Positions 5,783-63,090 of a stretch of DNA of 64,000 nt are shown one piece after another. The stretch covers positions 6,820,001 through 6,884,000 of the forward strand of contig JAGIQG010000040.1 of assembly GCA_024679065.1 (NCBI GenBank), in the 5' to 3' direction. The notes under the pieces are model-generated. The model ran no database searches, was not told where the DNA came from, and saw only the letters and a program-made list of their open reading frames with translations. Position numbers and translations under genes: made by a program. Positions within the stretch are counted from its first letter, which is position 1; each line of letters starts with the position of its first letter. Source of the DNA: Sphyrna mokarran (Eukaryota).

Positions 5783-6359
5783 GTTCAAAATTTAATGATA
5801 TTCAGGTTGTGGTAGATTGTGTGACTGTCAGATCCTGAAGTGAGTTTCCCGGCTGCAAATCCTCCCTTTCTAATGCCCTGTGAAATTGATTTAAAACAGG
5901 AAAAAAAAAGGGAGTGAGAGAGAACCCACAAAAGGTAGGTTGTGATATTGAGCTGAATGAATCTGGTAATTTATGGAGTTGGCATAAGGAAAAATGACCA
6001 TGAAAACTGATGGAAACCAAACAGGTTCTCAATATCTATTAATAAAGTAATTTATATTATCTGGGCAGATTAAACACCCTGGCCTCCATTACAGGAAAGA
6101 GAATGAGAAAAAGAAAGAGATTAAAGACAGATACATTGATGGCAAAGGGAACAATCAAATTCTTAATGAGATTTGCCAAACCACCAGCCCAACTTCTAAT
6201 ATCACGAAAAACCAGGTTAGCAATTCTATGTTAGCAACACACTGATATCAGGTCTTGGACAAACAGATAATTCCTCTGTTAATATATCAGGAAGACTGAA
6301 AAGATTGTTTTCAGTCCTCACTGCAAATTCTCGTTCCTAACCACCAACTCCATCCCTCT

Positions 6360-10499: not shown

Positions 10500-12545
10500 T
10501 ACTTGTGAATTCACTGATGTCTCTGCAGGTGAGATGAGGTATTGAATCACTTTCCACGCTGAGCCGCTGAACGGTCTTTCCCCAGTGTGACTGCGCCATT
10601 GCACAGTGAAGTTAGCTGATTGTTTGAAACCAGCCTCATAGTAAGCACCTGAAGAGTTTCTTCCCAATATGAACATGTTAATAGAATATCAATTCCCCTG
10701 AATTTTTAAAGCACTTTCAGTATTCTGGGCAGTGAAACTGTCTCTCCCCAATGTGCATTTGCTGGTGTCTCAGGAGATGGGATGACTGATTGAATCCCTT
10801 CCCACACTCAGAGCAGGTGAACAGCCTCTCCCCAGTGTGACTGCGCTCATGAACAGTGAATTTAAATCTAAGCCTAAACCCAGTCCCAGAGCAAGAACAC
10901 CTGAACAGCCTCTCATCAGTGTTAATATATTGATGGGATATCAGCTCTCTGGGACTTTTAAACCATTTCCCACAATTTAAACATTTAAAAGATCTCTCTC
11001 CAGTGTGAGCTTGCTGATGTCTCAGCAGAATGGATAACTGAGTGAATCCCTTCCCACACTAACAGCAACTGAATGGTCTGTCCCCACTATGAATGTGCTG
11101 GTGTCAAATCAGTTGAGATGATTTACTATCCTGCAGTAAGAGCAGCTGAATGGTATTTTGTCAGTGTAGAAAGTGGCAGCACAGGTGGAAAAGGTGGTGA
11201 AGAAGGCATATGGCATGCTTGCCTTCATTGGATGGAGAATCGAGTATACAAGTTGGCAAATTATGTTACCATTATATAAAATAATAATTAGGTCACATTT
11301 GGAATACTGGTCTAATTCTGGTCACCACACTAAGAGGACATGGAGGCTTTGGAGAGAGTACAGAAAATGTTTACCTGGATGTTGCTTGATCTGGAGGGAT
11401 GATCTGGAGGGATACTATGAAGAGAGATTGAATAAACTGGGATTGATCTCCTTGAAAGATGGAGGCTGAGGGACGACCTGATAGAAATTTATAAAATTGA
11501 GAGGTGTCGATATGTGATGACCAATTAGATGTTTTTTCCCCAGGGCGGAAATGAAAATTACAAGAGTGCACACATTAAAGATAAAGCAGTAGGATGTGGG
11601 GGAAAGGGGGGAAGGTTCAGTAGAGATGATTAGAGGAGATTCTTTTACAAGGGTATGGCTCACTTCTGCAATGCACTGCAAAGTGATATGTTTGAGGCAG
11701 TTATATTAGCCACATTTAAGACATCTTGATAGGCATATGAGCAAGCAGGGAACAGAAAGATATGTGTTTGGTCTAATTGGGTAAATAAGATTAGCACAGG
11801 CGCACAGCGAGCTTTCTTAAAACATATTTTAAAAATATATTCTTAAAACTTAAATTGTCTCATCTAATCTGTATGGCAGTAGGATTTGATGATATCTTGA
11901 TCCCAGTTGCTTAAGTTCTTACTTAAAAGCATCAAAATGGTCTTTTGTCAATGTGAGCACGTTGATGGACATCCGATCATTGGAACTTCAATAGCACTAC
12001 TAGAATATCTATAATACTCCCCACAGACTGGACAATTGAAAGCTGTATCCCCAATGTGAACTCGCAAGAAACTACAAAAGGTCGTGAATGTAGCCCAATC
12101 CATCTCGCAAACCAGCCTCCATCTGTTGAGTTTGTCTACACTTCCTGCTGCCTTGGCAAAGCAGCCAACATAATCAAGGACCCCATGCACCCCGGACATT
12201 CTCTCTTCCACCTTCTTCCGTCAGACAAAAGTCTGAGGTCAGGTATCAACTTACTCAATAACAATTTCTTCCCTACTGCCGTAAGACCTTTGAATGGACC
12301 TATCCAGCATTAAGTTTCTTTGTACTGTAGCTATGACTTTACATTACATTCTGCACTCTCATTTCCTTTTCTATAATCAGTATCCTCTGTCATATAGTGC
12401 ATGATAAACAATAAGTATCATTGTATGCTAATAGATGACAATAATAAATCAAATCAACATCAAATCTGGTGTGTCAACAGAGCTGATGACTGAGTGTCTT
12501 CCCACAGTCAGAGCAAGGGAAGCGCCTCTCTCTAGTGTGAATTCG
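10500..12545 (-). pseudogene. C2H2 zinc-finger pseudogene interrupted by CR1 (about 11170-11800) and Rex1 fragments
   Basis: Minus-strand fingers ([28 protein letters not shown] linkers) with several in-frame stops. Confidence 0.75.
12058..12460 (+). mobile_element. Rex1/Babar-like LINE 3' fragment
   Basis: CLGKAANIIKDPMHPGHSLFHLLPS C-terminal motif and (TCAAA)n tail; related copy at 37390-37770. Confidence 0.65.
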
Positions 12546-12788
12546 CATTCACATTTTTCCTGTTTTATATCAATTTCACAGGGTGTTAGATGAGGAGGAT
12601 CTTCAGTCAGAAATTTGACACTAAACATCACGTCAGAATCTGGCAGAGTCAGACAATTTATTGTAATTGAAATAACATTGGGAATTGAATCTGGAAGGAG
12701 AAAGCACAGTTGAGAGGCCAGATGATTGGCTGAATCTTCATCCACACACAGAACATGTGTAAGGTGAACTGTGCTTTCCCCTTCCATG

Positions 12789-15120
12789 CCAACTAGAGGT
12801 GAGGCTACATTGGATTTGGTGCTGGGCAATGAGCCAGACCAAGTGTTAGGCTTGGAAGTTAGTGAACATTTTGGTGATAGTGACCACAATTCGGTTACGT
12901 TCACCTTAGTGATGGACAGGGATAGGCATGAAGCTGGGGGCAGTAGTTATAGCTGGGGGAAGGGTAATTATGAGGCCATCAGGAGAGAATTAGGGTGCAT
13001 AGATTGGACTAGGAAACTACAGGGACTGGGAACATCTGGAATGTGGAGCTTATTCAAGGAGCAGCTGCTGCGAGTCCTTGATAAGTATGTCCCTGTCAGG
13101 CAAGGAGGAAATGGTCGAGTAAGAGAACCTTGGTGTACGAAAAAAGTTGATTTGCTGGTTAAAAGGAAAAAGGAGGCTTATGTCAGGATGAGGCTTGAAG
13201 GCTCGGTTAGTGCAATGGATAGCTATAGATTAGCCAGGAGGGAGCTAAAGTGTGAATTGAGGAGAGCTAAGAGAGGACACGAGAAGACTTTGGCTGATAG
13301 GATTAGAGAGAATCCTAAAGCTTTCTTTAGATATGTTAAGAATAGAAGATTGGTTAGGGCAAGATTAGGGCCAGTCATAGACAGCAGTGGGAAGTTGTGC
13401 GTGGAGCCTGAAGAGATTGGAGAGGCACTAAATAAATATTTCTCTTCGGTATTCACGCAGGGAGATGTAAATGTAGTTGTGGAGAACACTGAGGTACAGG
13501 GTTGCAAACTGGAAAGTATTGAAGTAGATAGGGAGGATGTGCTAGATATTCTCGAGGGTTTGAAGTTGGATAAGTCCCCTGGGCCGGACGGGATTTACCC
13601 TAGGATTCTCTGGGAGGCAAGAGAGGAGATTGCAGAGCCTCTGGCTCTGATCTTCAGGTCGTCGTTGGTTACGGGTATGGTTCCGGAAGACTGGAGGATA
13701 GCGAATGTGGTCCCATTGTTCAAGAAGGGGAAGAGAGACCTTCCAGGGAATTATAGGCCAGTGAGTCTTACTTCTGTTGTGGGCAAAGTATTGGAGAGAA
13801 TTATTAGGGATAGGATTTATAGTTATTTAGAGAGAAATGAATTGATTGGGGATAGTCAGCATGGTTTTGTGAAGGGTAGGTCGTGCCTTACTAACCTCAT
13901 TGAGTTTTTTGAAAAAGTGACCAAAGAGGTGGATGGGGGTAAGGCGGTTGATGTGGTATATATGGACTTTAGTAAGGCGTTTGATAAGGTGGCCCATGGA
14001 AGACTTCTGCAGAAAATGCAGATGTATGGGATAGAGGGTGATTTAGCTAATTGGTTAGGAATTGGCTAGCAGATAGAAGACAGAGGGTGGTGGTTGATGG
14101 GAGATATTCATCGTGGAGTTCGGTTACTAGTGGTGTACCTCAGGGATCTGTTTTGGGGCCCCTGCTGTTTGTAATTTTTATAAATGATCTGGATGAGGGT
14201 ATTGAAGGATGGATTAGTAAATTTGCAGATGACACTAAAGTCGGTGGAGTGGTAGATAGTGAAGAAGGGTGTTATAGTTTGCAGAGAGACTTGGACAAGT
14301 TGCAGAGCTGGGCCGAGAGGTGGCAAATGGCGTTTAATGTGGAAAAGTGTGAGGTAATGCACTTTGGCAGGAATAATAAATGTGTAGAGTATAGGGCTAA
14401 TGGTAGGATTCTTAATAGTGTTGATGAACAGAGGGATCTTGGTGTATATGTGCATAGATCCCTGAAAGTAGGCAGTCAAGTCGATAAGGTTGTTAAGAAG
14501 GCATACGGAGTCTTAGCTTTTATTGGTAGGGGGATTGAATTTCGGAGCCGCAACGTCATGTTGCAACTGTACAAAACTCTAGTGCGGCCGCACTTGGAGT
14601 ATTGTATGCAGTTCTGGTCCCCACATTATAAGAAAGATGTGGAGGCATTGGAGAGGGTACAGAGGAGGTTTACCAGGATGTTGCCTGGTATGGAGGGCAG
14701 TTCTTATGAAGAGAGGCTGAGGGATTTGAGGTTGTTTTCGTTAGAAAGGAGGCGGCTAAGAGGGGACCTAATCGAAACATATAAGATGATTAGAGGTTTA
14801 GATAGGGTGGACAGTGATAGCCTTTTTCCTAGGATGGAAAAAGCTAGCACGAGGGGACACAGCTTTAAATTAAGGGTGATAGTTATAGGACGGATATCAG
14901 AGGTAGGTTCTTTACCCAAAGGGTGGTTCGGGAGTGGAATGCCCTGCCTGCAGCAGTTGTAGATGCGCCAAGTTTGGTGGCGTTTAAGAGGTTAGTTGAT
15001 AAGTATATGGAAGAGAAGGGAATGGTTTAGTTTGGAGGGGCATTGCTTTTTATATTGGTCGGCGCAACATCGAAGGCCGAAGGGCCTGTTCTGTGCTGTA
15101 ATGTTCTATGTTCTATGTTC
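12789..15120 (+). mobile_element. Young CR1 LINE, 5'-truncated ORF2 (end of APE domain, tether, RT) with frameshifts
   Basis: ORFs 12771-14069 and 14051-14962: SDHN, NYRPVSLTS, QHGF, GVPQGSVLGP, FADD; (TTCTATG)n tail. Confidence 0.95.
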
Positions 15121-18300: not shown

Positions 18301-20150
18301 AAAACGTTAAATTTGTGATTAATGTTTATAATAAAATGTTAAATTTGTCAGTAAAACTGCAGAATTGTATATACAAAAATTAAATCAACCATCCATTGAA
18401 GAAAGAAAGCAACAATGGATAACAAGCTAGAACAATCTTTGGACAAGGAACAAAAACAGCATTGCTAAAATATTGTTCTTAGCATAAATACAATTTGAGT
18501 AATAACAAATGGTAAAAAAATTATATTACATTTTGTAATAATATGTATGTTTTGTACACTGCAAGTAAATATCAGGAGTTAACAGACACATCTGTATTTG
18601 GCGTACATTTATACCAGAACAGTTGATGTATCTGAAAGTTGGTATGTAATCATATACCAATTCATGCAAGGTAGAGGTCTCCTTTATGGATAATCCCTTT
18701 AAGGTGGGAGGAATTAATGATATGCGATCAATTAACCCAATTATTCAGGAAACCTAGAGGAAGGGCAATGGGATTTACAAAGAAGTGTGAAAGTGCTGAT
18801 ATCTTTACTTGAATAAATACTTGTATTCAATATAGCCAAACGAGCACCCAATTCTAATTGGTACAAGATGAGGGGAACATGTAATATTATGCGTCACGGT
18901 GATCAGGGAAGCATAGATATTGGGATTAGTAAATTAAATCTATACCATGGACGTCAGGAGCATGATTTGCTTAAGCCCATTGGAAGATGATCACATGTAT
19001 AATATTCAATATACCCAACAGTTATTGGAACTTATTGGATTTGTAGAAGCAAATTTTTCGCAGATTAGAATGGAGTTTTTACTTAGAATATGTAGTTCCA
19101 CGTATTTACCACACTAATCAATTACCAGAGGAAACTGCCAGACATCGACGTATTGCAGTGGGCATAGACTATTTCTTTGGAATAATGATGCCAAGATATT
19201 TACATGTAATACTGACAATGGAATTGGAACATATTGTTTATCTTAGAAAGGGTAGCTAATGGCACTCGGCTACTGCTTTATTACAAATAAAATAGTAGCA
19301 ATGCGTACAGTTGTGTTACAGAATGAGATGACGTTGGACTTCATCTTGCAGCAATCGGAAACTGGATCCAAATGCTGCGCCTACATACCAGCAATTTCGG
19401 AGAATAACACCAATCTAGTAACTCATATTTGGAAGGAGGTCAAGAAGATAGAAAAAAACAGAGCTATTCTCTCTGGAAAAATGGAAACAGGATAGGTTGG
19501 AATATTGGGAAATATTAATAGGAGCGACATATCTTTTTGTTTATTGATTATTGTAACTATAATGCTACTCAAATGTTATTGTTCGAGCACATGTCAGAAA
19601 TGCAAGAGCAGTATTGATTAAGGAAGAGAAGGAAGAATTACCAATGATTTCAACTTATTTAGATGTTCCAATTTATGATATTGAATACAATAGTGTATCC
19701 TTTTAAAACAAGAACCCAAAGAGAAAATGCTGGAAAATCTCAGCAGGACTGGCAACATTTGAAAAGAGAGAAAAGAGTTGACATTTTGAGTCCAGACGAC
19801 CTTCTGCCAGAGCTTTCATAAAGGATCATCTGGACTCGAAACATCAGCTCTTTTCTCTCCTTACAGATGCTGCCAGAGCTGCTGAGATTTTCCAGCATTT
19901 TCTCTTTTGGTTTAGATTCCAGCATCCACAGTATTTTAAAATGAGAACCTTTTTTCAATAAAAACAATTAATACTTTATAAGTGTCATCGGGCTCGTTGG
20001 ACCGAAGGGCCTGTTTCCTGTGCTGTTTTGTTCTTTGTTCTTTAACACATTGAGTGTAAAGAAAATAAGTAGAATAGGATAGACAACATTAATAGAGTTT
20101 TCAGACACAATTTTGGACTTGTACTGCTTTTATACGGCCAACAGGAGGAA
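15305..20150 (+). mobile_element. Decayed endogenous retrovirus (class I, gamma/epsilon-like): PBS, pro, RT connection, integrase, env, PPT
   Basis: PBS-like TGGCAATGATATGGGAT 15305-15321 (tRNA-Ser-like) after ...AACAgtt; KSALTMAPALG (~17350); YHGVAH / KCIQCAQ zinc motif; LQMNFIGPLP and LDSDQGTHFTG integrase core (17.9-18.2 kb); env GTYWIC, RHRR, LQNEMTLDFIL...CCAYIP (19.0-19.4 kb); purine tract ACAGGAGGAA at ~20141. Confidence 0.8.
17029..17227 (-). mobile_element. Young CR1 3' end fragment inserted in the ERV
   Basis: TAGAACATAGAACA tail and 3' UTR matching the young CR1 family. Confidence 0.85.
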
Positions 20151-21943: not shown

Positions 21944-23193
21944 TTTTCAGGAGACACCCTGGAGAGCATCTTGTTCGAATTTTATTGTCGCTGCACTTCT
22001 GAAAGGAATCAGAACTTCATCCACCAGATGTTACCACAGCCCTTAGGCGATAGGCAGAAACAGAGAATTGATCTCAGTACGATATGGCCACAACCCCCAT
22101 AATTGCAGACAAGCAGACTGAATCACACCACTGGGACGTATATTGGGAAGGCTAGTTATTGCTCATTTGTTCAGAGCCGTTTACCCATAAAACATCATTT
22201 GATGCTACAAAGCGGTTTTTATTAAGTAACACACCACAACAGTACAACAAGCAACACAACAATTCCCACAACGCAACCGTAACATGATACCCGCTTGCAC
22301 AACCCGGAAGCTATATCGATCGCCGTCTAACCATACGCCACCCCTCGGGGCATGGAAGATTTCATGTTATTTTTGGTAGTATGAGAGGTTCCTGCGAACC
22401 TACTCCTTCACATCATCATCTGGATTGTGATCACCATGAACGTGATGGGGCACCAACGACCATTCATGTCATCACACCAGGTGTGGTATATGTGACTCCC
22501 CTTGAAACCGAGTGTCTGGGCTGGAGGTCTCGATAAGGTTTCTGCTACCTTGATAGGCACAATCTGCATCCTTCGGGTCCAATGCAAATCACCAACTACC
22601 CCCGGGACAGGCTGGAATCTGTTTCGTCAAAGTTTCTTTAAATTACCGTGTTTACAAGTACAGGAGCATGTTTGGCGGTTCTCAGCTAGTCGGCTCCCTT
22701 GCAAACCTGATCAGGTTAAGGCTTACCTACCCTGCAGGGCCCTCGACCAGGCTCGACTCACTGTGGTCTAGAACGCCAAGATAACTGCGGTTAAGCAGAT
22801 TCAGCCACAAACTACTCCAACAATACCACGTGTATCATGCTGGCAGTTTGGGTGGTAGTCGTCATGGGTTAGCATGAATTGCACCTGCTATTTGTTTCTC
22901 GACCAGTCAACAAATATCATCCCTAGCGCCCTCAGGGATGATACCAGGTGGTTTCAGCGGAAGGGCATGACTCGCTGTGCTATAGAAACCAGAAAATTCA
23001 TACAGCTACCTGAGATTGGCAATTCTGGATGGAGCCTTTGCGCATGAATGGAATGAAAAACCAATCTCAACCAACCTGTTTGCAACTGCACTCTGACAGA
23101 GGACAGAAGTGCAATTTCATCCGCATTCACTCCTCAGCCAGTTGCTTTAGCCATCGCCACATGGCCGTAGCAGCGATGCTTCCGGCGGGACCA
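21944..23193 (-). mobile_element. Candidate non-autonomous (internally deleted) R2-derived element
   Basis: 3' end ...CCTGAAAA joined directly to 28S TAGCC; HDV-ribozyme 3' half at the 5' end; no RT or endonuclease ORF visible inside. Confidence 0.65.
23141..23193 (-). ncRNA. 3' half of an R2-type HDV-like self-cleaving ribozyme (truncated)
   Basis: TGG-TCCCGCC-GG-AAG-CATCGCTGC(9-nt loop)GTGGCGATG-GCTAA-AGCAAC = P3', P1', P1.1, P4, J4/2, P2'. TCCCGCC is complementary to 28S GGCGGGA at -28 from the R2 site. Confidence 0.6.
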
Positions 23194-23222
23194 TTGAATT
23201 ATTATTACCATTATTATTACCG

Positions 23223-24557
23223 TTGGAGAGAATTATTAGGGATAGGATTTATAATTATTTAGAGAGAAATGAATTGATTGGGGATAGTCAGCATGGTTTT
23301 GTGAAGGGTAGGTCGTGCCTTACTAACCTCATTGAGTTTTTTGAAAAAGTGACCAAAGAGGTGGATGGGGGTAAGGCGGTTGATGTGGTATATATGGACT
23401 TTAGTAAGGCGTTTGATAAGGTGGCCCATGGAAGACTTCTGCAGAAAATGCAGATGTATGGGATAGAGGGTGATTTAGCTAATTGGATTAGGAATTGGCT
23501 AGCAGATAGAAGACAGAGGGTGGTGGTTGATGGGAGATATTCATCGTGGAGTTCGGTGACAAGTGGTGTACCTCAGGGGTCTGTTTTGGGGCCCCTGCTG
23601 TTTGTAATTTTTATAAATGATCTGGATGAGGGTATTGAAGGATGGATTAGTAAATTTGCAGATGACACTAAAGTCGGTGGAGTGGTAGATAGTGAAGAGG
23701 GGTGTTATAGTTTGCAGAGGGACTTGGACAAGTTGCAGAGCTGGGCCGAGAGGTGGCAAATGGAGTTTAATGTGGAAAAGTGTGAGGTAATGCACTATGG
23801 CAGAAATAATAAATGTGTAGAGTATAGGGCTAATGGTAGGATTCTTAATAGTGTTGATGAACAGAGGGATCTTGGTGTATATGTGCATAGATCCCTGAAA
23901 GTAGGCAGTCAAGTCGATAAGGTTGTTAAGAAGGCATATGGAGTCTTAGCTTTTATTGGTAGGGGGATTGAATTTCGGAGCCGCAACGTCATGTTGCAAC
24001 TGTACAAAACTCTAGTGCGGCCGCACTTGGAGTATTGTGTGCAGTTCTGGTCCCCACATTATAAGAAAGATGTGGAGGCATTGGAGAGGGTACAGAGGAG
24101 GTTTACCAGGATGTTGCCTGGTATGGAGGGCAGGTCTTATGAAGAGAGGCTGAGGGATTTGCGGTTGTTTTCGTTAGAAAGGAGGCGGCTAAGAGGGGAC
24201 CTTATCGAAACATATAAGATGATTAGAGGTTTAGATAGGGTGGACAGTGATAGCCTTTTTCCTAGGATGGAGAAAGCTAGCACGAGGGGACACAGCTTTA
24301 AATTAAGGGGTGATAGTTATAGGACGGATATCAGAGGTAGGTTCTTTACCCAAAGGGTGGTTAGGGAGTGGAATGCCCTGCCTGCAGCAGTTGTAGATGC
24401 GCCAAGTTTGGTGGCGTTTAAGAGGTTAGTTGATAAGTATATGGAAGAGAAGGGAATGGTTTAGTTTGGAGGGTCATTGCTTTTTATATTGGTCGGCGCA
24501 ACATCGAAGGCAGAAGGGCCTGTTCTGTGCTGTAATGTTCTATGTTCTATGTTCTAT
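23223..24557 (+). mobile_element. Young CR1 LINE, 5'-truncated, open RT and C-terminal frame (413 aa)
   Basis: ORF 23223-24464 with QHGF/GVPQG/FADD; (TTCTATG)n tail; 12-bp tandem filler ATTATTATTACC x2 at the 5' junction. Confidence 0.95.
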
Positions 24558-27805: not shown

Positions 27806-30800
27806 TGTTGAAAGAGCTCACCATCTGCTGGGGGCTCATAACTACTGTAGGTGTTGGCCTTTGTGAGTTTCCAAGAAGTTCTGAGACTTGCTGTCGCATC
27901 GAGAACCTGTTGCTGACATATGAACATTGAAGAATACTGTCAAGAATTCAAGTTTTTAGCAGGACCTTGCTTGGTGAACTTTCCTTTTATAAAAAGACAT
28001 TGCACATGAGTTCTGTTCTGCTTTCCATATATCGAGTTATTGCTTATTGTATCCTTGATTATTTCAGACTGCAATGTGTACATTCAACGCACTGATCAGA
28101 CAGAACCATCAGAAATAGAAGTAGGAGTAGACCATTCAGGTGTTTGAGCCTGCTCCACCATTCATTTTGATTATGACTGATCATCAAAATTAACAGCCTG
28201 ACCCGCCCTTTACCCCTTTAGCCCACAGCTGTATTCAATATCTTCTTGAAATCAGACAATGTTTTGTCCTCAGCTACTTTCTGTGGTAGTGAATTTCCCA
28301 GATTCATCACTCTCTGGGTGAATAAATCCCTCCTTTGCCTTAGTCAAGGAAGGTTTACCCCTTATCCTCAAAATATGACCTCTAGTTCTGGACTCTCCTA
28401 CCATTGGGAACGTTTCTTTTTTCCAAAATCAAGTCTGCCTAATCTTTTTAATAATTTATAAGTTTCTTTGAGATCCCTCTCACTCTTCTCAACTCTGCTG
28501 AATATGATCCTAACTAATTTAATTTTTTGTCATATTACAGATCTGTCATCGGTGCTATCAACATGCAGAATCAGGAACTGACTAAATATCCATCACCAAC
28601 CCAGATAGAATAATTAGATGTGGGAAATCCAAATATATATTGTATGATAATACACTAGATGTAACTTACAAATTGGCCAACTTTATTCTGATCTGTTGAT
28701 CGATTGGGCAATGCATACGTTATTGCACTTATGTCTCCTAGCTGGCAAAGCAGACAACGGGATGATTGCATTTCACTGCGAAGAGCATTAAAAAAAATCA
28801 GCAAAAGAGGAAGGTTTACCAAAAGGTTAAAATCATCATTATGACTGATTCACATTCGAGGGGGAGGGTTTGTGGCAGTTTGGCTTGGAAGATGATGTGT
28901 AATGTTAGGTCAGATATTAACGATGAAAGGTTGATTGTTGAAGATGTAAATTTGTTACTGCAGCTCAACACATTTTTGGCTGTGGAGAAATTAGACCTTA
29001 TCCATTTACAGAAGAGCATCAAGTATTAGCAGTTGTGCAGCACGAAAACAATGTTTGGGAAATTAAACAATGTTTTGATGAGTATACTACAGAAAAATGA
29101 TAAATGACCACATAAGGCTGGATTGAAAATCCAATTCCTGGCAAAGGGATGGAATGGATGGGTGTAAAAGGCAGGAACCTGGATGTTTTACTCAACATTA
29201 CGTTATCTGCTCATAGAAGGTGCTGAAACACATCATTCTGCCATTGTGGTGTTGATCAACCCTCTTGAAGATGCCTTTAAGACATTCAAAACTTCCTCCT
29301 ACACGGTCTTTACTTCTGACAGGCAGGACAAGATTCCTCTGTGAAGTGTATGATGGTGATCGTAACCACATTTCTGTTTGCCAATCGCTGAATTTTTTTT
29401 GGACATTTATCTTGTGACTAGATCCTTCCCTGGATGAGAAATGTTTTCAAATTGAAAATGTGCATTAACCAGTTAACTTGGCCAGTGATGCAGTGGACCA
29501 TGACCACAACAGGATTGATGGTACATAATTTTTATTTATTATCAGTCACAAGTAGGCTGATATTAACACTGCAATGAAGTTACAAGCAATCATGAGAGGA
29601 AGGATGCAAATAAATCTTGCCACAGCTAAACCCAGGGAATTAGAATGCTTAGAGAGAAATCGAGTCAAGGTGGCGAAATGTAATATTCCTGTTGAGAAAT
29701 AAGAATGATGGCAGTGACAGCTGCGTCTATTACAATACTGTATTACAGTCTCTGTGTTTGCTGTTACAAGAATCTGATCATACCCGAAGCGATGGAGATG
29801 GCAATGGTGGCTAATAAAGATGATAGAACGATTTTTGCCACTACCCTCCCAGTGAGTAGAAAAAAAAGGCAAAAAAATGCCAATTTTTCACATTAATTTA
29901 ATTTTGATTTGGGGACGCCCTTTTGACTTGGGGAAATCGTGAGAGAAAAGTAGAACAACAGATCCGAAGCCCACTAGATTCCACTGTGATCCCTCAAGCC
30001 ATCGGTGTGTATAATATCTGCGAATCTCTCCACTGGGACAGATAGCGCTTGATCAAGGATCCAGAAGGAGGACTGAAGCAGGATAAAAAACTTAAAATCC
30101 TGAAGATTAATGTTAAATGTTGCATTACTGATTTCAGAATGGACAGTAGAGTTCCATCTTGGCATCATGGGAAATTAACCGAATTCTACTCGGGTAATTG
30201 AAACCTTGACCGATGATATCTCCAAAGGCGGCTGACCCAGTAATTATAACAATAACAGCTTTCATATACACCAGTGGTTGAACAGGACAAAACAGATGAT
30301 TGGAGGAAACTGGAGGGCCATAAACGAGAGAAGGCCATAAGGTACGGTGGTGAGATAATGGGAATATCCACTGACTGAACAGTATGGCTAGATAAATAAA
30401 TTATTGGGAAAATCTTTGCGAATACAAGAGTTAGAAATGTGTTACAAGGCTTGTGAAATGGAACGGCATTTTTACAGATTGTATGCTTCTCTCTTTCTCT
30501 CTAGCATTTGCGTGTCTTAGAGACATTGTTGTCTGAAACTGACAGGCTTGAGCGGTCTCACATTTTACTACAACAATTCAAAAACACGGCCAGTTCATTT
30601 TGAACTCATCTTGAATTCTATTTGCCTTGACTTTTATAGGATGATTTTTTTCCCATTCTCTCAACAGAACTGATACCCACTAAATATCACTTTCAAGAAT
30701 GTGACCTTCTTCTTAAAGTGTGGTACGTGGGTCTGAACAAAATACGCAAGCGGATACGTTATCATGTATTAATAAAGGTTTGATAAAACTTTCTTGGGTT

Positions 30801-34166: not shown

Positions 34167-36049
34167 TAGAACATAGAACATAGAACATAGAACAATACAG
34201 CACAGAACAGGCCCTTCGGCCTTCGATGTTGTGCCGACCAAAATAAAAAGCAATGCCCCTCCAAACTAAACCATTCCCTTCTCTTCCATATACTTATCAA
34301 TTAACCTCTTAAACGCCACCAAACTTGGCGCATCTACAACAGCTGCAGGCAGGGCATTCCACTCCCTAATCACTCTTTGAGTAAAGAACCTACCTCTGAT
34401 ATCCGTCCTATAACTCATACCCCTTAATTTAAAGCTGTGTCCCCTCGTGCTAGCTTTCTCCATCCTAGGAAAAAGGCTATCACTGTCCACCCTATCTAAA
34501 CCTCTAATCATCTTATATGTTTCGATAAGATCCCCTCTTAGCCGCCTCCTTTCTAACGAAAACAACCTCAAATCCTTCAACCTCTCTTCATAGGACCTGC
34601 CCTCCATACCAGGCAACATCCTGGTAAACCTCCTCTGTACCCTCTCCAATGCCTCCACATCTTTCTTATAATGTGGGGACCAGAACTGTACACAATACTC
34701 CAAGTGCGGCCGCACTAGAGTTTTGTACAGTTGCAACATGATGCTGCGGCTCCTAAATTCAATCCCCCTACCAATAAAAGCTAAGACTCCATATGCCTTC
34801 TTAACAACTTTATCCACTTGACTGCCTACTTTCAGGGATCTATTGACACATACACCAAGATCCTTCTGTTCCTCAACACTATTAAGAGCCCTACCATTAG
34901 CCCTATACTCTACACATTTATTGTTCCTGCCAAAGTGCATTACCTCACACTTTTCCACATTAAACTCCATTTGCCACCTCTCGGCCCAGCTCTGCAACTT
35001 GTCCAAGTCACTCTGTAAACTAAAACACCCCTCTTCACTATCTACCACTCCACCGACTTTAGTGTCATCTGCAAATTTACTAATCCATCCCTCAATACCC
35101 TCATCCAGATCATTTATAAAAATTACAAACAGCAGGGGCCCCAAAACAGACCCCTGAGGCACACCACTTGTCACCGAACTCCACGATGAATATCTCCCAT
35201 CAACCACCACCCTCTGTCTTCTATCTGCCAGCCAATTCCTAATCCAATTAGCTACATCACCCTCTATTCCACACATCTGCATTTTCTGTAGAAGTCTTCC
35301 ATGGGCCACCTTATCAAACGCCTTACTAAAGTCCATATATACTACATCAACCGCCTTACCCCCATCCACCTCTCTGGTCACTTTCTCAAAAAACTCAATG
35401 AGGTTAGTAAGGCATGACCTACCCTTCACGAAACCATGCTGACTATCCCCAATCAATTCATTTCTCTCTAAATAACTATAAATCCTATCCCTAATAATTC
35501 TCTCCAATACCTTGCCCACAACAGAAGTAAGACTCACTGGCCTATAATTCCCTGGAAGGTCTCTCTTCCCCTTCTTAAACAATGGGACCACATTCGCTAT
35601 CGTCCAGTCCTCCGGAACCACACCCATAACCAACGAGGACCTGAAGATCAGAGCCAGAGGCTCTGCAATCTCCTTTCTTGCCTCCCAGAGAATCCTAGGG
35701 TAAATCCCGTCCGGCCCAGGGGACTTATCCAACTTCAAACCCTCGAGAATTTCTAACACATCCTCCCTATCTACTACAATACTCCCCAATTTGCAACCCT
35801 GTACCTCAGTGTTCTCCATAGCTACATTTCCAGCACTCTGCGTGAATACCGAAGAGAAATATTTATTCAGTGCCTCACCAATCTCTTCAGGCTCCACGCA
35901 CAACTTCCCACTGCTGTCTATGACTGGCCCTAATCTTGCCCTAACCAATCTTCTATTCTTAACATATCGAAAGAAAGCTTTAGGATTCTCCTTAATCCTA
36001 TCAGCCAACATCTTCTCGTGTCCCCTCTTAGCTCTCCTCAATTCACTTT
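34167..36049 (-). mobile_element. Young CR1 LINE, 5'-truncated, uninterrupted ~595-codon ORF2 segment
   Basis: ORF 34266-36080 with full RT motifs; (TAGAACA)n tail at ~34167-34194. Confidence 0.95.
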
Positions 36050-36548
36050 TGACCTTGGAAAAGATACAGAGGATGTTCACAAAAATGATTCCCAGAACGA
36101 AGAACTTAATGTATGAGGATTGGTTGAGAACTCTGGGTCTGTACTAGTTGGAGTTTTGAAGGATGAGCGGGCAATCTTATTGAAACTTACATGATACTGC
36201 AAGGACGGGATAGAGTGAATGTGGAGATGATGTTTCCAGTAGTGGGAAAAACTAGAGGCAGGGGCTCAACCTCAGGTTAAAGGGATGATCCTTAAGACAG
36301 ACATGAGGAGGTATTCCTTCAGCCAGAGAGTGATGAATCTGTGGGACACTTTGCTGCAGAAGACGTTGAATATTTTTAAGGCAGAGATAAGTAGGTCCTT
36401 GATTAATAAGGGGATCGGGGATTATGAGGAAAAGGCAGGAGAATGGGGATGATAAAAATATCAGCCATGATTGAATGGCAGAGCAGGCTCGATGGCATAG
36501 TCTAAGCCAAGTAGCCTAATTCTGCTCCTATGTCGTATGGTCTTATGA
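36050..36548 (+). mobile_element. Older CR1 3' fragment (host of the young CR1)
   Basis: LEKIQRMFTKMIP...YEDWLRTLGLY and a CR1-type 3' end. Confidence 0.7.
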
Positions 36549-37770: not shown

Positions 37771-39715
37771 AGAACATAGAACATAGAACAATACAGCACA
37801 AACAGGCCCTTCAGCCCACGAGTTGTGCTGATCACATCTACCAATCCACAGACCTATCTATAACCCTCTATTCTATTCTTTTCCATATACTCATCCAGAA
37901 GTCTCCCAAAAGACCCCAGTGAGTTTGCCTCAACAACTTCCGACGGCAGTCGGTTCCATTCACTCATCACTCTCTGAGTGAAAAACCTACTCCTGACATC
38001 TCCTTTGTATTTGCTTCCCTGCACCTTAAATCTGTGTCCTCTAGTAGTGACCATTTCAGCTCGGGGAAACAGTCTCTGAGAGTCCACCCTATCTATTCCT
38101 CTCAACATTTTATAAACCTCTATCAGGTCGCCTCTCAACCTACGTCTCTCCAGTGAGAAGAGTCTCAGCTCCCTCAACCTATCTTCATAAGGCCTGCCTC
38201 CCAATCCAGGCAGCATCCTTGTAAATCTCCTCTGAACCCTCTCAATAGCCTCTACATCCTTCCTATAATGAGGCGACCAGAACTGCGCACAATACTCCAA
38301 CTGGGGTCTGACAAGAGTCTTATAGAGCTGCATCATTACTCCTGACTCCTAAACTCTATTCCTCGATTAATGAAGGCCAGTACACCGTACGCCTTCTTGA
38401 CCACTTCCTCCACCTGCGAGGCCGACTTAAGAGTCCTATGGACCCGGACCCCGAGATCCTTCTGCTCTACAACACAGCTAAGACTCCTACCCCTTATAGA
38501 ACATAGAACATAGAACACTACAGCACAAACAGGCCCTTCGGCCCACAAGTTGTGCCGAACACATCAAAACCTACCCAGCCATAGACCTATCTATAACCCC
38601 CAATCCCATTGGATCCCATATACTCATCCAGAAGTCTTTTAAAACACCCCAGCGAGTTCGCCTCGACCACCACCAATGGCAGCCGATTCCATTCACTCAC
38701 CACCCTCTGAGTGAAAAACTTTCCCCTAGCATCCCCTCTGTACTTGCTACTTATATTGTACTCCTTCATCCCATTATTCCAAAATGGACCACTACACATT
38801 TATCCGCGTTGAAGTCCATCTGCCACTTCTTCGCCCAGTCTTGCATCTTGTCTGTTGCATCCTGGAGTTTAATGTGGAAAAGTGTGAGGTAATGCACTTT
38901 GGCAAGAATAATAAATGTGTAGAGTGTAGGGCTAATGGTAGGATTCTTAATAGTGTTGATGAACAGAGGGATCTTGGTGTATTTGTGCATAGATCCCTGA
39001 AAGTAGGCAGTCAAGTCGATAAGGTTGTTAAGAAGGCATACGGAGTTTTAGCTTTTATTGGTAGGGGGATTGAATATCGGAGCCGCAACGTCATGTTGCA
39101 ACTGTACAAAACTCTAGTGCGGCCGCACTTGGAGTATTGTGTGCAGTTCTGGACCCCACATTATAAGAAAGATGTGGAGGCATTGGAGAGGGTACAGAGG
39201 AGGTTTACCAGGATGTTGCATGGTATGGAGGGCAGGTCTTATGAAGAGAGGCTGAGGGATTTGAGGTTGTTTTCGTTAGAAAGAAGGCGGCTAAGAGGAG
39301 ACCTTATTGGAACATATAAGATGATTAGAGGTTTAGATAGGGTGGACAGTGATAGCCTTTTCCCTAGGATGGAGAAAGCTAGCACGAGGGGACATAGCTT
39401 TAAATTAAGGGGTGATAGTAATAGGACGGATATCAGAGGTAGGTTCTTTACCCAGAGGGTGGTTAGGGAGTGGAATGCCCTGCCTGCGGCAGTTGTAGAT
39501 GCGCCAAGTTTGGTGGCGTTTAAGAGGATAGTTGATAAGTTTATGGAAGAGAAGGGAATGGTTTAGTTTGGAGGGTCATTGCTTTTTTCATAATTGGTCG
39601 GCGCAACATCGAAGGCCAAAGGGCCTGTTCTGCACTGTAATGTTCTATGTTCTATGTCTATGTCCCGCTGCAACTTTTGGCATCCCTCCAGACCATCCAC
39701 AACACCACTGATCGG
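37770..39715. mobile_element. Nested CR1 stack: minus-strand 3' ends (37770-38497, 38497-38750, 38751-38850) and a young plus-strand copy (38863-39660)
   Basis: ORFs 37854-38336(-) and 38784-39566(+); several TTCTATG tails; host resumes at ~39660. Confidence 0.9.
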
Positions 39716-49270: not shown

Positions 49271-49304
49271 ATGCAAATTCACCCTGTCTCTTGAGGTTTA
49301 TAAA
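49271..49304 (+). promoter_or_regulatory. IgNAR V promoter: octamer ATGCAAAT (49271-49278) and TATA box TATAAA (49299-49304)
   Basis: Perfect Ig octamer 20 bp before the TATA box, 93-126 bp upstream of the leader ATG. Confidence 0.8.
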
Positions 49305-49396: not shown

Positions 49397-49439
49397 ATGC
49401 ATATTCTCTGGGCTGCACTCCTTTTAACGTGGTTATCAA
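49397..49439 (+). CDS. IgNAR: IgNAR leader exon (MHILWAALLLTWLS)
   Basis: Hydrophobic signal peptide; phase-1 donor A|GTAAGT at 49440. Confidence 0.93.
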
Positions 49440-49579: not shown

Positions 49580-49853
49580 ATGCCTTCAGTACATATGTCG
49601 ATCAAACACCACGGACGGTAACTAAAGAAACAGGCGAATCTCTGACAATCAGCTGCATGCTAAGGGATAGTGGCTATAGCTTGGAGGGAACAAGCTGGTT
49701 TCGGAAAAATCCTGGTTCAACAGATTGGGAACGCATTACCATTGGCGGCCGATATTTTCAAGAAATCAGCAGGGGAAGCAAGTGGTCTTCTCTGCAAATC
49801 AAGGACTTAACAGTTGAAGACAGCGGCACATTTTACTGCAAAGCTCAAAAAAC
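49580..49853 (+). CDS. IgNAR: IgNAR variable exon (VNAR, germline, only the two canonical Cys; type IV/IIb-like)
   Basis: Acceptor ...CATACAG; YVDQTPRTVTKETGESLTISC...TSWFRKNPGSTDWERITIGGRY...LQIKDLTVEDSGTFYCKA, with the VNAR-specific FR2/CDR2 deletion. Confidence 0.97.
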
Positions 49854-49891
49854 CACAGTAATTAGGTTGAACTTTCAGTCGTACAAAAATA
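49854..49891 (+). other. V recombination signal (22-bp spacer)
   Basis: CACAGTA-22-ACAAAAATA. Confidence 0.9.
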
Positions 49892-50080
49892 TCGTCCGAT
49901 CTCTAATGAAGTTAACACAATTTTGTTCGCTCTTCTGGCTGAAACTGCATTTTAGCTGTGGAAACTATTTTGAAACGGAGACATTCGTAAATATCTGGTG
50001 AAGTTCCGGATCATAAATCCCAAGCATTTGAAATGTGAATGCGCAGTAAATGTATTCAACACCCAGATAAATAGAGAAGC

Positions 50081-50158
50081 TGTTTTTGAACGGCGCTAGA
50101 TCACTGTGCGGGACACTGCCACAGCAATCGAGAAGGCGGTTCCTGTCATACACAAACG
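50081..50158 (+). other. IgNAR: IgNAR D1 (coding 50109-50119, CGGGACACTGC) with 12-RSS and 23-RSS
   Basis: TGTTTTTGA-12-CACTGTG | D | CACAGCA-23-ACACAAACG. Confidence 0.92.
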
Positions 50159-50535
50159 ATCTACAGATTTATTTTCTTTAACACTGGAACAGTTTGACTG
50201 TTTCTCAACTGGTCTTGCGAGAAGTTATTAATGAATAATCTGGAGGTTTAACACGTTTAGTCGAAAGAAAACGATGAACAAAGGGACATTGTGATATTCT
50301 GCAAAGCCCGAGATTGCTCACAACAATAAGATAGAACTTCCAGTTCTGCAAGAGTACCTTCCGATCTCCCAATGAAGAGAAGACAATTTTATTCATCATT
50401 CTGGCTGAAACTGCATTTTAATTTGAAGCGGCCCACATTTACAATCATCTGGTGACAGTTCGAGGATCATAAATCCCAGCATTTGAAATGTGAATGCGCA
50501 GCAAATGTATTCAACACCCAGTCAAAGAGAGACGC

Positions 50536-50620
50536 TGTTTTTGAACGGGGCTAGAACACTGTGTGCATACTGGGGTGCTGTCACAGCAATCGAGAAGCCG
50601 GTTCCTGTCATACACGAACT
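50536..50620 (+). other. IgNAR: IgNAR D2 (coding 50564-50581, TGCATACTGGGGTGCTGT) with 12-RSS and 23-RSS
   Basis: TGTTTTTGA-12-CACTGTG | D | CACAGCA-23-ACACGAACT. Confidence 0.92.
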
Positions 50621-50978
50621 ATCTTCAGATTTGTTTTCTTTAACACTGGTCTTGTAGGAAGTTATTAATGAATAATCTGGAGATTTAGCACGTTTAGTCG
50701 AAAGAAAACAATAAAAAAATCACAGTATGTTCTTTAAAGCTCGAGATGGCTCCCAATATTAGGATTGAACTTGCAGTTCTGCAAAAGTATCTTCCGATCT
50801 CTCGATGTTTACAAGACTATTTTATTCGCTCTTCTGGTTGAAACTGTATTTTATCTGTGGATACTATTCTGAAACGGGGACATTTATAAAAATCTGGTAA
50901 CACTCCAGAATCATAAAACTAGCATTTGAAATATGGATTCGCAGCAACTGTATTTAACATCCAGACAAACAGAGAAGC

Positions 50979-51055
50979 AGTTTTCGAACGGGGCTACACC
51001 ACTGTGTGGGGGCTATCACAGCAATCGAGAAGACTGTTCCTGTCACACATAAACT
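50979..51055 (+). other. IgNAR: IgNAR D3 (coding 51007-51016, TGGGGGCTAT) with 12-RSS and 23-RSS
   Basis: AGTTTTCGA-12-CACTGTG | D | CACAGCA-23-ACATAAACT. Confidence 0.9.
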
Positions 51056-51647
51056 ACCTGTAGATTTGTTTTCTTTAACATTGGAACATTTTAACTATTG
51101 CTCAGCTGATTTTGCCGGAAATTACTAATGAATATTTTAGAAGGATAACACGTTTAGTTGAATGAAAACAATGAAAAAAAAAAAGAACATTGTGATGTGA
51201 AGGCAAGTCGGAGTAGACGTCTCGAACTGAGAAGCTTGGATGACTATACGTGACAAGTTTTTGCATTGATATCTGCGGCTGTGTGGCTGCATCTGCCACA
51301 TTAATGAATTATAGATTCTCTTAATACAAAAACTATCCTATACTCCTGAAGAAAAACAAACAGATTTTACTTTAAGTGGCTAAGCTAGCTCATGGTTAAA
51401 CAACTGCTATCTTCCTCAGACATCAATTGATGCATTGAAACATTTTCCCTGTCTATTTTGACAATTATGTTTATAAATATTTAAATCGCATTTATACCAT
51501 AGCACAGAGGTTTCTCCATGATTTGGACAAGTCCTCAGAAGGTGTAGACAGCTGCTCGGATCCCAGTATGAAAGGACCAATTTGCGACAATTTCCAATCG
51601 ATATTTTGGAACGATTGAAGCGTTTTCTGTGAAGGTTTGATTAATGG

Positions 51648-51714
51648 ATTTATTGTGCTGGAGTGAAGTGATGTGCGCTGGGACGACACAGTGATGCAGG
51701 CCACAACAAAAACG
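51648..51714 (+). other. IgNAR: IgNAR D4 (coding 51676-51686, CGCTGGGACGA) with 12-RSS on both sides
   Basis: ATTTATTGT-12-TGATGTG | D | CACAGTG-12-ACAAAAACG. Confidence 0.85.
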
Positions 51715-52025
51715 TCCACTATAGTTATTTCCTTTCGGACTGGCGAACCAGGCAGTATTGTACTGTTTCTAACACCTCTTAGCGTTGGAAATCCATTCCG
51801 ATGGATTTGCATTTTTGGAATGCACCATTATGATCCTTAATATTGAATCACTGGACTGTCTTTCTTGTAAGGTATTAGACGTGTACAGATGGCTCATAGA
51901 AAACCTCTCCACAGATGGAAACAGATCAAGAATTTAGGTGCATTGATGATAAATGTAACATATACAAAAGATCTTTGTATCGATGTTGCTTCAGGGCATT
52001 GAATAGCGGATTTTGCTTCATTGGC

Positions 52026-52064
52026 AGTTTGTGACATGGGCTGACTGGATGCTCACTGACCGTG
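52026..52064 (+). other. J recombination signal (23-bp spacer)
   Basis: AGTTTGTGA-23-GACCGTG. Confidence 0.75.
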
Positions 52065-52110
52065 TATTGCTACTATGATGGGCCTGGTACTCTACTGGCC
52101 GTAAATCCTG
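52065..52110 (+). CDS. IgNAR: IgNAR J segment (YCYYDGPGTLLAVNP)
   Basis: G-x-G-T FR4 motif, VNP end typical of NAR J, donor G|GTAAGT at 52111. Confidence 0.93.
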
Positions 52111-54169: not shown

Positions 54170-55335
54170 GCATGAGATCATTTAGTGAAAGGAATGGATA
54201 GTCTTGGGGATGTCAAGCATATCAAGTTGATGCTCAGGCAAGGGGAAGTCATGTCTGACAAATCCTTTAGATTTCTTTGAGGAGGTAGTACAGAAGTTAG
54301 AAAAAGGAGGACCAGTGGACGTGATTTATTTAGATTTCCAGAAGTCCTCACACAAGGTGTCACATTGAAGAATGCGAAATAAATTAAGAACTCATGGCGT
54401 TAAGGGTAAAATACTGGCATGGATAGAGGATTGGCTGATTGTCAGAAGACAAAAATGAAGGATCTTTTTCAAGATGGCAGCCGGTGTTGTGCCTAAGGGG
54501 TGGTGCTGGGACAACAACTTTTCACAATATACATTAACGATTTGGAAGGAGAAACTGAAGGGGCTATTGCTAAGTTTGCAGATGATACAAAGATATCTGG
54601 AGGGAAGGTAGTTCTGAGGAAGCAGGAAGTTGGGGGTTGAGGAGGGGTGGTGTGGGTGCAGAAAGATTTGGACAGACTAAGAAAATGGGCAAAGAAGTAG
54701 CAAATGGAAAACAATGTGGAAAAGTGTTAAGTTCTGCACTTTAGAAGCAGGAATGTAGGCGTAGACTATTTTCCAAATGGGAAAATAGAGAGTGAATTCA
54801 ACTATTTGACAAATTATCTTGGATCTCAATTAATCAGAATAAAATTTTAGATTCTTAATAATCAAGAAGGTAATTGGACAGAAACAATATTTGTATTGGT
54901 TCATAAAGAAAATGCACTATTTTAAAGTCATTTTGTGAAGATAATTTAGAAGAATGAAAGAGATCTTATTGAAACTTACAGAATATTGCGAGGTCTGGAT
55001 AAAGTGGGCGTGGAGACAATGTTTCCACTAGTCGGAAAAACTAGAACCAGATGGCACAATCCCAGACTAAAGGGATGATCCTTTAAAATAATGATGAGGA
55101 AGAATTTCTTCAGCTGGAGAGTGGTGAATCTGTGGAATACTTTGCTGCAAAAGGCTGTGGAGGCCAGGTCATTGAGTGACTTTAAGAAGAGATAGATAGA
55201 TATTTCATTAATAAAGGGATGAGAGGTTATGGGGAAAATGTAGGAGAATGGGGATGAGAAAACATCAGCAATGATTGAATAGTGGAGTAGATTCGACGTG
55301 CTGAATGGCCTAATTCTGTTCCTATTTCTTATGGC
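54170..55335 (+). mobile_element. Decayed CR1 (RT and 3' end) in the J-C1 intron
   Basis: IAKFADDTKI motif at ~54570-54595; CR1-type 3' end at ~55300. Confidence 0.75.
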
Positions 55336-55567
55336 CGTATAGGCAAGTGTAATATGCAAGGTCGATGTTGCAGACAGTTTAAATATACCTCAGGCAATGG
55401 CCGGGGTAGAGAGTGAATTCAGCTATTTGACAAATTATCTTGGATCTCAATTAATCAGAATAAAATTTTAGATTCTTAATAATCAAGAAGGTAATTGGAC
55501 AGAAACAATATTTGTATTGGTTGATAAAGAAAATGCACTATTTTAAAATCATTTTGTGAAGATAATT
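54786..55567. repeat. 161-bp near-perfect direct repeat (54786-54946 and 55407-55567)
   Basis: TAGAGAGTGAATTC...GTGAAGATAATT present twice, with about 3 differences. Confidence 0.9.
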
Positions 55568-60799: not shown

Positions 60800-63090
60800 T
60801 GATCCCTATTTTAAATCTGTTTTCTATACCCCTCCATTCCCATTCTGTTCATGTGCCCATCTAAGTATTTCTTAAATAACTCCAGAGTACCTGCCTTCAC
60901 CATTTTACTTGGCAGCGCATTCCATACCAGCACCACCCTCTGCGTGAAAAACCTCCCTCTAGCATCCAATTTATACCTTACCCTAAGCCCGTGACCCCTC
61001 GTGCTATTTGAGTCCATCCTAGGAAAAAGCTTAACCCTGTTTACTCTATCTATCCCCTTCAAAATCTTGTGTACCTCTATCAGATCTCCTCTAAGTCTAC
61101 GTCTTTCTAAGGAAAACAGCCCCAATTTGTCTAATCTCTCCTCGTAACTCAGACCTTCCATATCAGGCAGCATCCTGGTAAACCTCCTCTGCACTCTCTC
61201 CAGAGTCTCCACGTCCTTCCGGTAGTAAGGCGACCAGAACTGGACACAGTATTCCAAATGAGGTCTAACCAGCGTTTTAGAACATAGAACAATACAGCAC
61301 AGAACAGGCCCTTCGGCCTTCGATGTTGTGCCAACCAAAATAAAAAGCAATGCCCCTCACCTAAAAAACCTTCCCTTCTCATCCATAACTTATCAACTAA
61401 CCTCTTAAACGCCACCAAACTTGGCGCATCTACAACAGCTGCAGGCAGGGCATTCCACTCCCTAATCACTCTTTGAGTAAAGAACCTACCTCTGATATCC
61501 GTCCTATAACTCATACCCCTTAATTTAAAGCTGTGTCCCCTCGTGCTAGCTTTCTCCATCCTAGGAAAAAGGCTATCACTGTCCACCCTATCCAAACCTC
61601 TAATCATCTTATATGTTTCAATAAGATCCCCCCTTAGCCGCCTCCTTTCTAACGAAAACAACCTCAAATCCTTCAACCTCTCTTCATAAGACCTGCCCTC
61701 CATACCAGGCAACATCCTGGTAAACCTCCTCTGTACCCTCTCCAATGCCTCCACATCTTTCTTATAATGTGGCGACCAGAACTGCACACAATACTCCAAG
61801 TGCGGCCGCACTAGAGTTTTGTACAGTTGCAACATGACGCTGCGGCTCCTAAATTCAATCCCCCTACCAATAAAAGCTAAGACTCCATAAGCCTTCTTAA
61901 CAACCTTATCCACTTGACNNNNNNNNNNNNNNNNNNNNNNNNNNNNNNNNNNNNNNNNNNNNNNNNNNNNNNNNNNNNNNNNNNNNNNNNNNNNNNNNNN
62001 NNNNNNNNNNNNNNNNNNCTGAGGCACACCACTCGTCACCGAACTCCACGATGAATATCTCCCATCAACCACCACCCTCTGTCTTCTATCTGCCAGCCAA
62101 TTCCTAATCCAATTAGCTAAATCACCCTCTATTCCACACATCTGCATTTTCTGTAGAAGTCTTCCATGGGCCACCTTATCAAACGCCTTACTAAAGTCCA
62201 TATATACTACATCAACCGCCTTACCCCCATCCACCTCTCTGGTCACTTTCTCAAAAAACTCAATGAGGTTAGTAAGGCATGACCTACCCTTCACGAAACC
62301 ATGCTGACTATCCCCAATCAATTCATTTCTCTCTAAATAACTATAAATCCTATCCCTAATAATTCTCTCCAATACCTTGCCCCCACAACAGAAGTAAGAC
62401 TCACTGGCCTATAATTCCCAGGAAGGTCTCTCTTCCCCTTCTTAAACATGGGACCACATTCGCCATCCTCCAGTCCTCCGGAACCACACCCGTAACCAAC
62501 GAGGACCTGAAGATCAGAGCCAGAGGCTCTGCAATCTCCTCTCTTGCCTCCCAGAGAATCCTAGGGTAAATCCCGTCCGGCCCAGGGGACTTATCCCACT
62601 TCAAACCCTCGAGAATTTCTAACACATCCTCCCTATCTACTACAATACTCCCCAATTTGCAACCCTGCACCTCAGTGCTCTCCACAGCTACATTTCCAGC
62701 ACTCTGCGTGAATACCGAAGAGAAATATTTATTCAGTGCCTCACCAATCTCTTCAGGCTCCACGCACAACTTCCCACTGCTGTCTATGACTGGCCCTAAT
62801 CTTGCCCTAACCACTCTTCTATTCTTAACATATCGAAAGAAAGCTTTAGGATTCTCCTTAATCCTATCAGCCACCATCTTCTCGTGTCCCCTCTTAGCTC
62901 TCCTCAATTCACTTTTTACCTCCTTCCTAGCTAATCTATAGCTATCCATTGCACTACCTGAGCCTTCAAGCCTCATCCTGACATAAGCCTCCTTTTTCTT
63001 CTTAACCAGTTTTATACAACTGCAACATTAAAGGCCAGCTCTTGTATTCTATACCCCTTCCTATAAAGGCTAACATGTGCTTTCTTTACA
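60800..63090 (-). mobile_element. Young CR1 (61278-63009, containing a 100-N gap at 61919-62018) nested in another CR1 (60800-61277 and 63010-63090)
   Basis: ORFs 61149-62372, 62401-62976 and 60811-61350; the host sequence resumes after the insert (TTTTATACAACTGC). Confidence 0.92.

Follow-up and report, generated by a model that had tools for sequence, protein, structure and literature searches.

Five candidate D segments in a germline IgNAR cluster of Sphyrna mokarran

Introduction

How many D segments can a single IgNAR minilocus hold, and what would a larger number do to the CDR3 that it encodes? The diversity of IgNAR depends almost entirely on CDR3, and in the sources consulted the cluster has three or fewer Ds. 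Some shark IgW or IgM clusters have up to four Ds, a number for which our literature search gave no confirmation. The canonical IgNAR cluster is V-D1-D2-D3-J-C1-5, as in nurse shark and in IgNAR1/2/5/6 of the white-spotted bamboo shark. The D count is given as three in the accessible text of PMC4622739, PMC4279169, PMC12907318 and PMC8692893 and as "up to three" in that of PMC5192425, and the departures described there have fewer, pre-joined Ds, not more (PMC4622739, PMC8692893). A full-text literature search, with subscription papers and figures largely outside its coverage, returned no IgNAR cluster exceeding three Ds, and the available parts of PMC12227049, PMC11767079, PMC10672104, PMC3308330 and PMC2193153 contain no IgNAR D count above three.

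Here we describe a 64,000-nt stretch of Sphyrna mokarran DNA (contig JAGIQG010000040.1, positions 6,820,001 to 6,884,000; the window), in which a first-pass annotation had proposed an IgNAR cluster with four Ds. The region from 47.5 to 64 kb of the window was read through, and scans for RSSs were run; the 3' end of C3, C4, C5 and the tails lie beyond the window.

Results

The window contains an IgNAR cluster

A germline IgNAR cluster lies in the window, all of it on the forward strand. Motif scans placed an octamer at 49271-49278 and a TATA box at 49299-49304, which we take to be Ig promoter elements. They are followed by a phase 1 leader exon with a GT donor (49397..49439), identical to the leader of P0008 at 13 of 14 residues, by an open VNAR V exon that ends in C-K-A-Q-K (49580..49853), and by a J whose coding sequence (52065-52110; YCYYDGPGTLLAVNP) has a GT donor. 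The constant exons are C1 (58299..58607), C2 (63487..63786) and the 5' part of C3 (63875..64000), an exon cut by the window end and identical to P0008 at 39 of 41 residues. Among PDB sequences the best single-domain match to C1 was 4q97 (E 1.3e-34), an artificial multi-domain chain having the higher summed score, and the best match to C2 was 4q9b (E 2.9e-35); both are nurse shark IgNAR domains. Open reading frames run through the leader, the V and J, C1, C2 and as much of C3 as is visible, and splicing at GT-AG keeps them in frame. These visible exons (~1.1 kb) contain no stop or frameshift, and all of their splice sites are intact. Identity to full-length P0008 was 73% for V, 81% for C1, 90% for C2 and 95% for C3; identity to the IgNARs P0009 (horn shark) and P0010 (basking shark) was 66-71% for V, C1 and C2, and 66-68% for the constant exons.

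Within the window, the features expected of an IgNAR cluster were found: a VNAR-type V (short, no CDR2, two canonical Cys, FR2 Trp), IgNAR constant exons 3' of J as recognized by the C1 and C2 matches, and one V and one J at a minilocus spacing of 250-500 nt with 12/23-compatible RSSs. The V was the only one in the window in tblastn with three full IgNARs. The D array is where the cluster leaves the canonical form of three, or up to three, Ds. Five cassettes argue against the label "canonical cluster" and not against "IgNAR". A VNAR-like V is also found in NAR-TCR, where it is set on TCR delta (PMC12227049, accessible text); that identity was rejected, since J here splices to IgNAR C1-C2-C3 and not to TCR delta V/C.

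Several neighbouring features were recorded. In the J-C1 intron, a 161-nt direct repeat (54786-54946 and 55407-55567, 98% identical and 621 nt apart) flanks a retroelement-like remnant; the second copy is either of recent origin or was introduced locally by the assembly. Near-identical reverse-transcriptase-like ORFs at 12768-14962, 23151-24464, 34266-36143 (-), 37854-39566 and 60811-63027 (-), presumably of CR1/L2 type, probably belong to a recently active LINE family; one of them crosses a 100-N gap at 61919-62018. C2H2 zinc-finger-like coding fragments (72-1110, 4820-5791 and 10717-11058) precede the IgNAR V by ~40 kb, and the second includes a 255-nt tandem repeat at 4820-5511. Isolated RSS-like sites at 1277-1305, 19927-19966 and 28042-28078 have off-rule spacers (13, 24 and 21, respectively); no Ig exon was found near these three sites, which are probably due to chance.

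The V segment lacks non-canonical cysteines

The best 30 matches of V among PDB sequences were all VNARs (best E 3.8e-32, compared to 4e-14 for the next class). A single-sequence AlphaFold model was uninformative (pLDDT 56). A model built from an 8-row alignment reached a mean pLDDT of 78, and all of its best 50 Foldseek matches were VNAR structures (TM ~0.8). The two canonical Cys were the only ones present, so that V has neither the FR2 Cys of type I nor the CDR1 Cys of types II and III; Tyr stands at the site of the type II CDR1 Cys. Following the definition of type IV in the available text of PMC4622739 (no non-canonical Cys in V), the germline V is type IV (IIb)-like, sharing with that type a V free of non-canonical Cys, an assignment made from the germline V alone for a property that is set by the rearranged CDR3.

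The framework of V (49580-49853) has K-W-S-S-L in place of the conserved S-F-S-L motif. The FR3 Phe at the third position was present in 12 of 12 inspected relatives (P0001-P0010, P0012 and P0013), and also in P0011, an engineered fusion not included in that count. V carries R-Y-F-Q where most relatives carry R-Y-V-E. A cryptic right-facing RSS-like site with a 12-nt spacer (two heptamer and two nonamer mismatches) lies at the V 3' end (49827-49854) and may be due to chance.

Five D cassettes lie between V and J

RSSs are described here by their heptamer+nonamer mismatches to consensus, and all positions are on the forward strand except where marked. V ends in an RSS with a 22-nt spacer (1+2; 49854..49891). 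The first cassette (50081..50158) consists of a 12-RSS (0+2), Da (50109-50119; 11 nt, RDT/GTL/GHC) and a 23-RSS (2+2), and the second (50536..50620) of a 12-RSS (0+2), Db (50564-50581; 18 nt, CILGCC/AYWGA/HTGVL) and a 23-RSS (2+3). Dc (51007-51016; 10 nt, WGL/GGY/GA) lies between a 12-RSS (0+3) and a 23-RSS (2+2) at 50979..51055, and Dd (51284-51296; 13 nt, WLHL/GCIC/AAS) between a 12-RSS (2+2) and a 22-RSS (2+1) at 51256..51334. In the last cassette (51648..51714), De (51676-51686; 11 nt, RWD/AGT/LGR) is flanked by 12-RSSs on both sides (3+3 and 0+1). J stands behind a 23-RSS (2+3; 52026-52064), the whole element spanning 52026..52110. The layout is thus V-22 / 12-Da-23 / 12-Db-23 / 12-Dc-23 / 12-Dd-22 / 12-De-12 / 23-J, with gaps from V to J of 255, 444, 425, 267, 379 and 378 nt. 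No D contains a forward-frame stop. Db has a 7-nt core in common with horn shark IgM D2 as given in Fig. 3 of PMC2191167, a match so short that chance could explain it.

These results bear directly on the earlier count. The V-RSS, the J and the four Ds that the first-pass annotation had named (Da, Db and Dc, of 12/23 type, and De, of 12/12 type; 50 nt together) were all found where it had put them, every join complies with the 12/23 rule as judged by RSS spacers, and its claim of more Ds than the textbook three holds. The number four does not, as Dd occupies the 659-nt gap left between Dc and De, and the 50 nt of D, five junctions and eight deletional paths become 63 nt, six and 16.

Dd escaped a strict RSS scan, which detected the signal at 51297 and missed its partner; it was revealed by a relaxed scan for cassettes, defined as a left-facing RSS, 4-30 nt and a right-facing RSS at a threshold of <=5 mismatches. 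The 12/12 cassette of De fell below this threshold and an overlapping 22-spacer alternative was detected instead. This left-facing RSS-like site (51620-51657, -; 2+3) overlaps the nonamer of the De 5' 12-RSS. It was rejected as the De 5' signal because the one 12-RSS upstream that could pair with it is a weak cryptic site in V. For J, another heptamer, with a 21-nt spacer, was discarded as it is without CAC.

The quality of the signals is uneven. Da, Db and Dc have perfect 5' heptamers, while their 3' heptamers are all non-consensus. The signals of Dd are better than the 5' RSS of De, which combines a weak 5' RSS with a strong 3' RSS and, as the terminal D, lies in every deletional path. The weakest signals of the cluster are the De 5' RSS (six mismatches) and the J RSS (five mismatches).

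A cassette of Dd quality occurred in 0 of 100,000 Markov-resampled copies of the 659-nt gap, and one passing the relaxed threshold in 386 of 100,000. Across 200 resampled windows the cassette scan gave a mean of 0.055 and a maximum of 2, and none had 4. An independent pattern search for the 12/22-23 type returned four cassettes in the window (Da, Db, Dc and Dd), compared to a chance mean of 0.06 and 0 of 100 shuffles with four. With Dd included, all segment spacings fall between 255 and 444 nt, inside the 250-500 bp given for shark clusters in the accessible text of PMC5192425. The five-D architecture is almost certainly real.

Da, Db and Dc lie in tandem units

Da, Db and Dc are carried by three tandem units of ~435-465 nt, each made up of a V 3' end, V-RSS, spacer, 12/23 D and ~170 nt of the next spacer. 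The present V-RSS marks the start of unit 1. Unit 2 starts with a relic V 3' end (F-C-K-A-R-D-C) and a decayed V-type 22-RSS (50294..50356), and unit 3 with a second relic (F-F-K-A-R-D-G) and a dead V-type RSS whose heptamer has lost CAC (50727..50789). The units were not reported by Tandem Repeats Finder and were shown by alignment and a repeat search. They are pairwise 79-84% identical, with indels, and their divergence is star-like (JC distance 0.20-0.25).

Conservation within these units, with three copies as the whole sample, was highest at the D signals. All 14 columns of the D heptamers were invariant, compared to 202 of 284 flank columns (Fisher p=0.0098); the values were 56 of 67 for the whole D-RSS (p=0.024), 27 of 32 for heptamer plus nonamer (p=0.079, not significant) and 10 of 16 for the V-RSS copies. 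Because the D heptamers are invariant while the V-RSS copies have decayed, the pattern suggests that selection may have kept all three D cassettes usable.

Since units 2 and 3 begin with relics of a V 3' end and a V-RSS, the extra Ds very probably arose by triplication of the first-D unit. An ordinary V-D1-D2-D3-J cluster would have had its D1 unit copied twice via unequal crossing-over, after which the two extra V-RSS copies would have decayed and the D signals would have been retained. The Dd region showed no homology above shuffles to the three units or to the De and J regions, and the De region showed none to the three units, as expected for a distinct D2 and D3; we infer that Dd is the canonical D2 and De the ordinary D3. 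The relic ends KARDC and KARDG differ from the present V end, KAQK; the units may equally have been duplicated in place, with a change of V afterwards, or been imported from a sister cluster. The relics resemble the KARDG start that is common in the available part of the topeshark CDR3 table (PMC10522858). The ~20% divergence suggests that the array is old. Extra Ds in relatives are plausible at that age, and the array may define an unrecognised cluster lineage common to related sharks.

Predicted rearrangements and CDR3

On the pattern of shark IgH biology, RAG would be expected to join the segments of this one cluster without a set order. The available text of PMC4622739 calls the order of IgNAR rearrangement undetermined; that of PMC2435157 describes intracluster, unordered joining for nurse shark IgM, with preferences attributed to RSS pairs. 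As the 3' signals from V to Dd are all 22/23 and the 5' signals of the Ds are all 12, any of Da to Dd could be kept or skipped, and De and J would be obligatory. The 16 deletional paths that are 12/23-legal have from two to six junctions, each of which would be open to trimming and N/P addition.

Measured between the FR3 Cys and the FR4 Gly, the untrimmed products of these paths are 40-92 nt long. The five-D join, untrimmed and N-free, gives 92 nt (~31 aa) compared to 63-71 nt for a three-D path (one first-type D, Dd and De), a difference of 21-29 nt of germline sequence plus two N regions. The unusually long CDR3 that had been proposed for this cluster is possible on this germline arithmetic. 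In topeshark libraries the median CDR3 is 17-18 residues and the maxima are 27-31, by the definition of CDR3 used there (PMC10522858). In horn shark IgM, each of the three reading frames of the Ds is used, according to the accessible text of PMC2191167.

Cys codons can be supplied by Da (GHC), Db (CILGCC), Dd (GCIC) and J (YCYY), up to seven in the germline, compared to the two CDR3 Cys of type V VNARs (PMC4622739 and PMC10672104, available text). With no CDR1 Cys in V and germline Cys in Da, Db, Dd and J, the products would be type IV or would have disulfides inside CDR3.

Searches for products of the cluster

Three protein searches (7, 4 and 5 matches) returned no product of this V. In a six-motif search of the whole topeshark CDR3 table (PMC10522858 supplement), AYWG, HTGV and RWD were each found 0 times and WGL 3 times. 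ILG was frequent (144 places, for the most part clonal variants); the V ends KARD/KARDG and KAQK were both present, and all 23 KAQK places were variants of one 12-aa CDR3. The table comes from a different species and is protein-level only, and was not counted as evidence on D use.

Discussion

The cluster resembles canonical IgNAR in its VNAR-type V, C1-C3, minilocus spacing, terminal 12/12 D and 12/22/23 spacer classes (PMC8692893 Fig. 1 legend, as available), and differs from it in having five Ds instead of three and relic V ends between Ds. With shark IgM (V-D1-D2-J) and IgW it would share intracluster, short-range, unordered RAG joining and D-D joins (PMC2435157 and PMC2191167, accessible text), but the isotype is different, and IgM miniloci have two Ds to the five found here.

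The array could in principle be false, reads of different clusters or alleles having been stacked into a tandem series. IgNAR loci exist in several copies and assemblies often leave gaps in them (PMC11641339, available text), the window itself has one 100-N gap, and the relic V ends belong to another V type. However, units that are 79-84% identical with indels are too dissimilar for this to be other than highly improbable, the decayed V ends and V-RSSs at the unit junctions would be absent from any intact cluster, and the sole gap is ~10 kb from the D array; the first-pass annotation had judged such an artefact unlikely on the divergence of the units, and we agree. It was also right about the isotype, the VNAR matches of V and the PDB matches of C1 and C2 both pointing to IgNAR, and about exons that are open and spliced in frame. 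Its further statement that the cluster looks functional was too strong. The De 5' RSS and the J RSS are both weak and both obligatory, making function less certain, and the loss of the conserved FR3 Phe from V counts against it, as do the R-Y-F-Q of V and the three protein searches that returned no product of this V. The exons on which the statement rests cover the gene only as far as C3.

The same two features would be accounted for if the five-D architecture were real and the cluster silent or decaying, a duplicated and little-used IgNAR pseudogene. V and C1 are further from P0008 than C2 and C3 are, and IgNAR clusters that are silent or incomplete are common: in the accessible text of the papers concerned three of seven bamboo shark IgNAR clusters are incomplete (PMC8692893) and one of three nurse shark IgNAR clusters is unexpressed (PMC11641339). 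We nevertheless consider this unlikely, as the visible exons have kept their reading frames and splice sites despite ~20% drift among the units and the D heptamers are better conserved than their flanks; the resemblance of the V model to VNAR structures, weak evidence on stability, points the same way. A functional cluster might instead use Da, Db and Dc as alternatives, joining one of them, in most cases, with Dd and De into a CDR3 of ordinary length, so that the gain would lie in combinatorial choice and not in length. Skipping of Ds is 12/23-legal, the non-consensus 3' and perfect 5' heptamers of Da-Dc might allow V, or a D nearer to V, to bypass its neighbour, the order of rearrangement in nurse shark depends on the efficiency of RSS pairs (PMC2435157, available text), and six junctions would carry a higher risk of stops and frameshifts. 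Against this, full VD1D2D3J assembly is described for IgNAR in reviews (PMC4622739, accessible text), and most of nine horn shark IgM cDNAs appear to carry both D footprints in the garbled text of Fig. 3 of PMC2191167. We regard such alternative use of the first-type Ds as quite improbable.

The reading we favour, and hold to be somewhat probable, is a five-D germline IgNAR minilocus that would operate like any shark IgH cluster, with two extra joints. The cluster is likely to be expressed, and the chance that four or five of its Ds are used in real transcripts is close to even. That a functional cluster uses all five, giving up to six N-diversified junctions per CDR3 and 16 D combinations, is proposed tentatively. 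To our knowledge, no antigen-receptor domain has more junctions.

The locus indicates that simple tandem duplication of a 12/23 D unit can raise the number of Ds, and the footprint of that duplication, in relic V ends and V-RSSs, is still legible. As its 16 paths can be told apart, they offer a natural test of whether RAG in sharks moves processively from one neighbour to the next or passes over Ds. Five-D CDR3s would be misassigned by repertoire pipelines built for three Ds, and for antibody engineering the cluster may be a source of VNAR loops that are long and rich in Cys. If all five Ds are used, one minilocus would have real combinatorial diversity in a system believed to be without it, and its long loops would be stabilised by disulfides within CDR3 and not by a CDR1-CDR3 bond.
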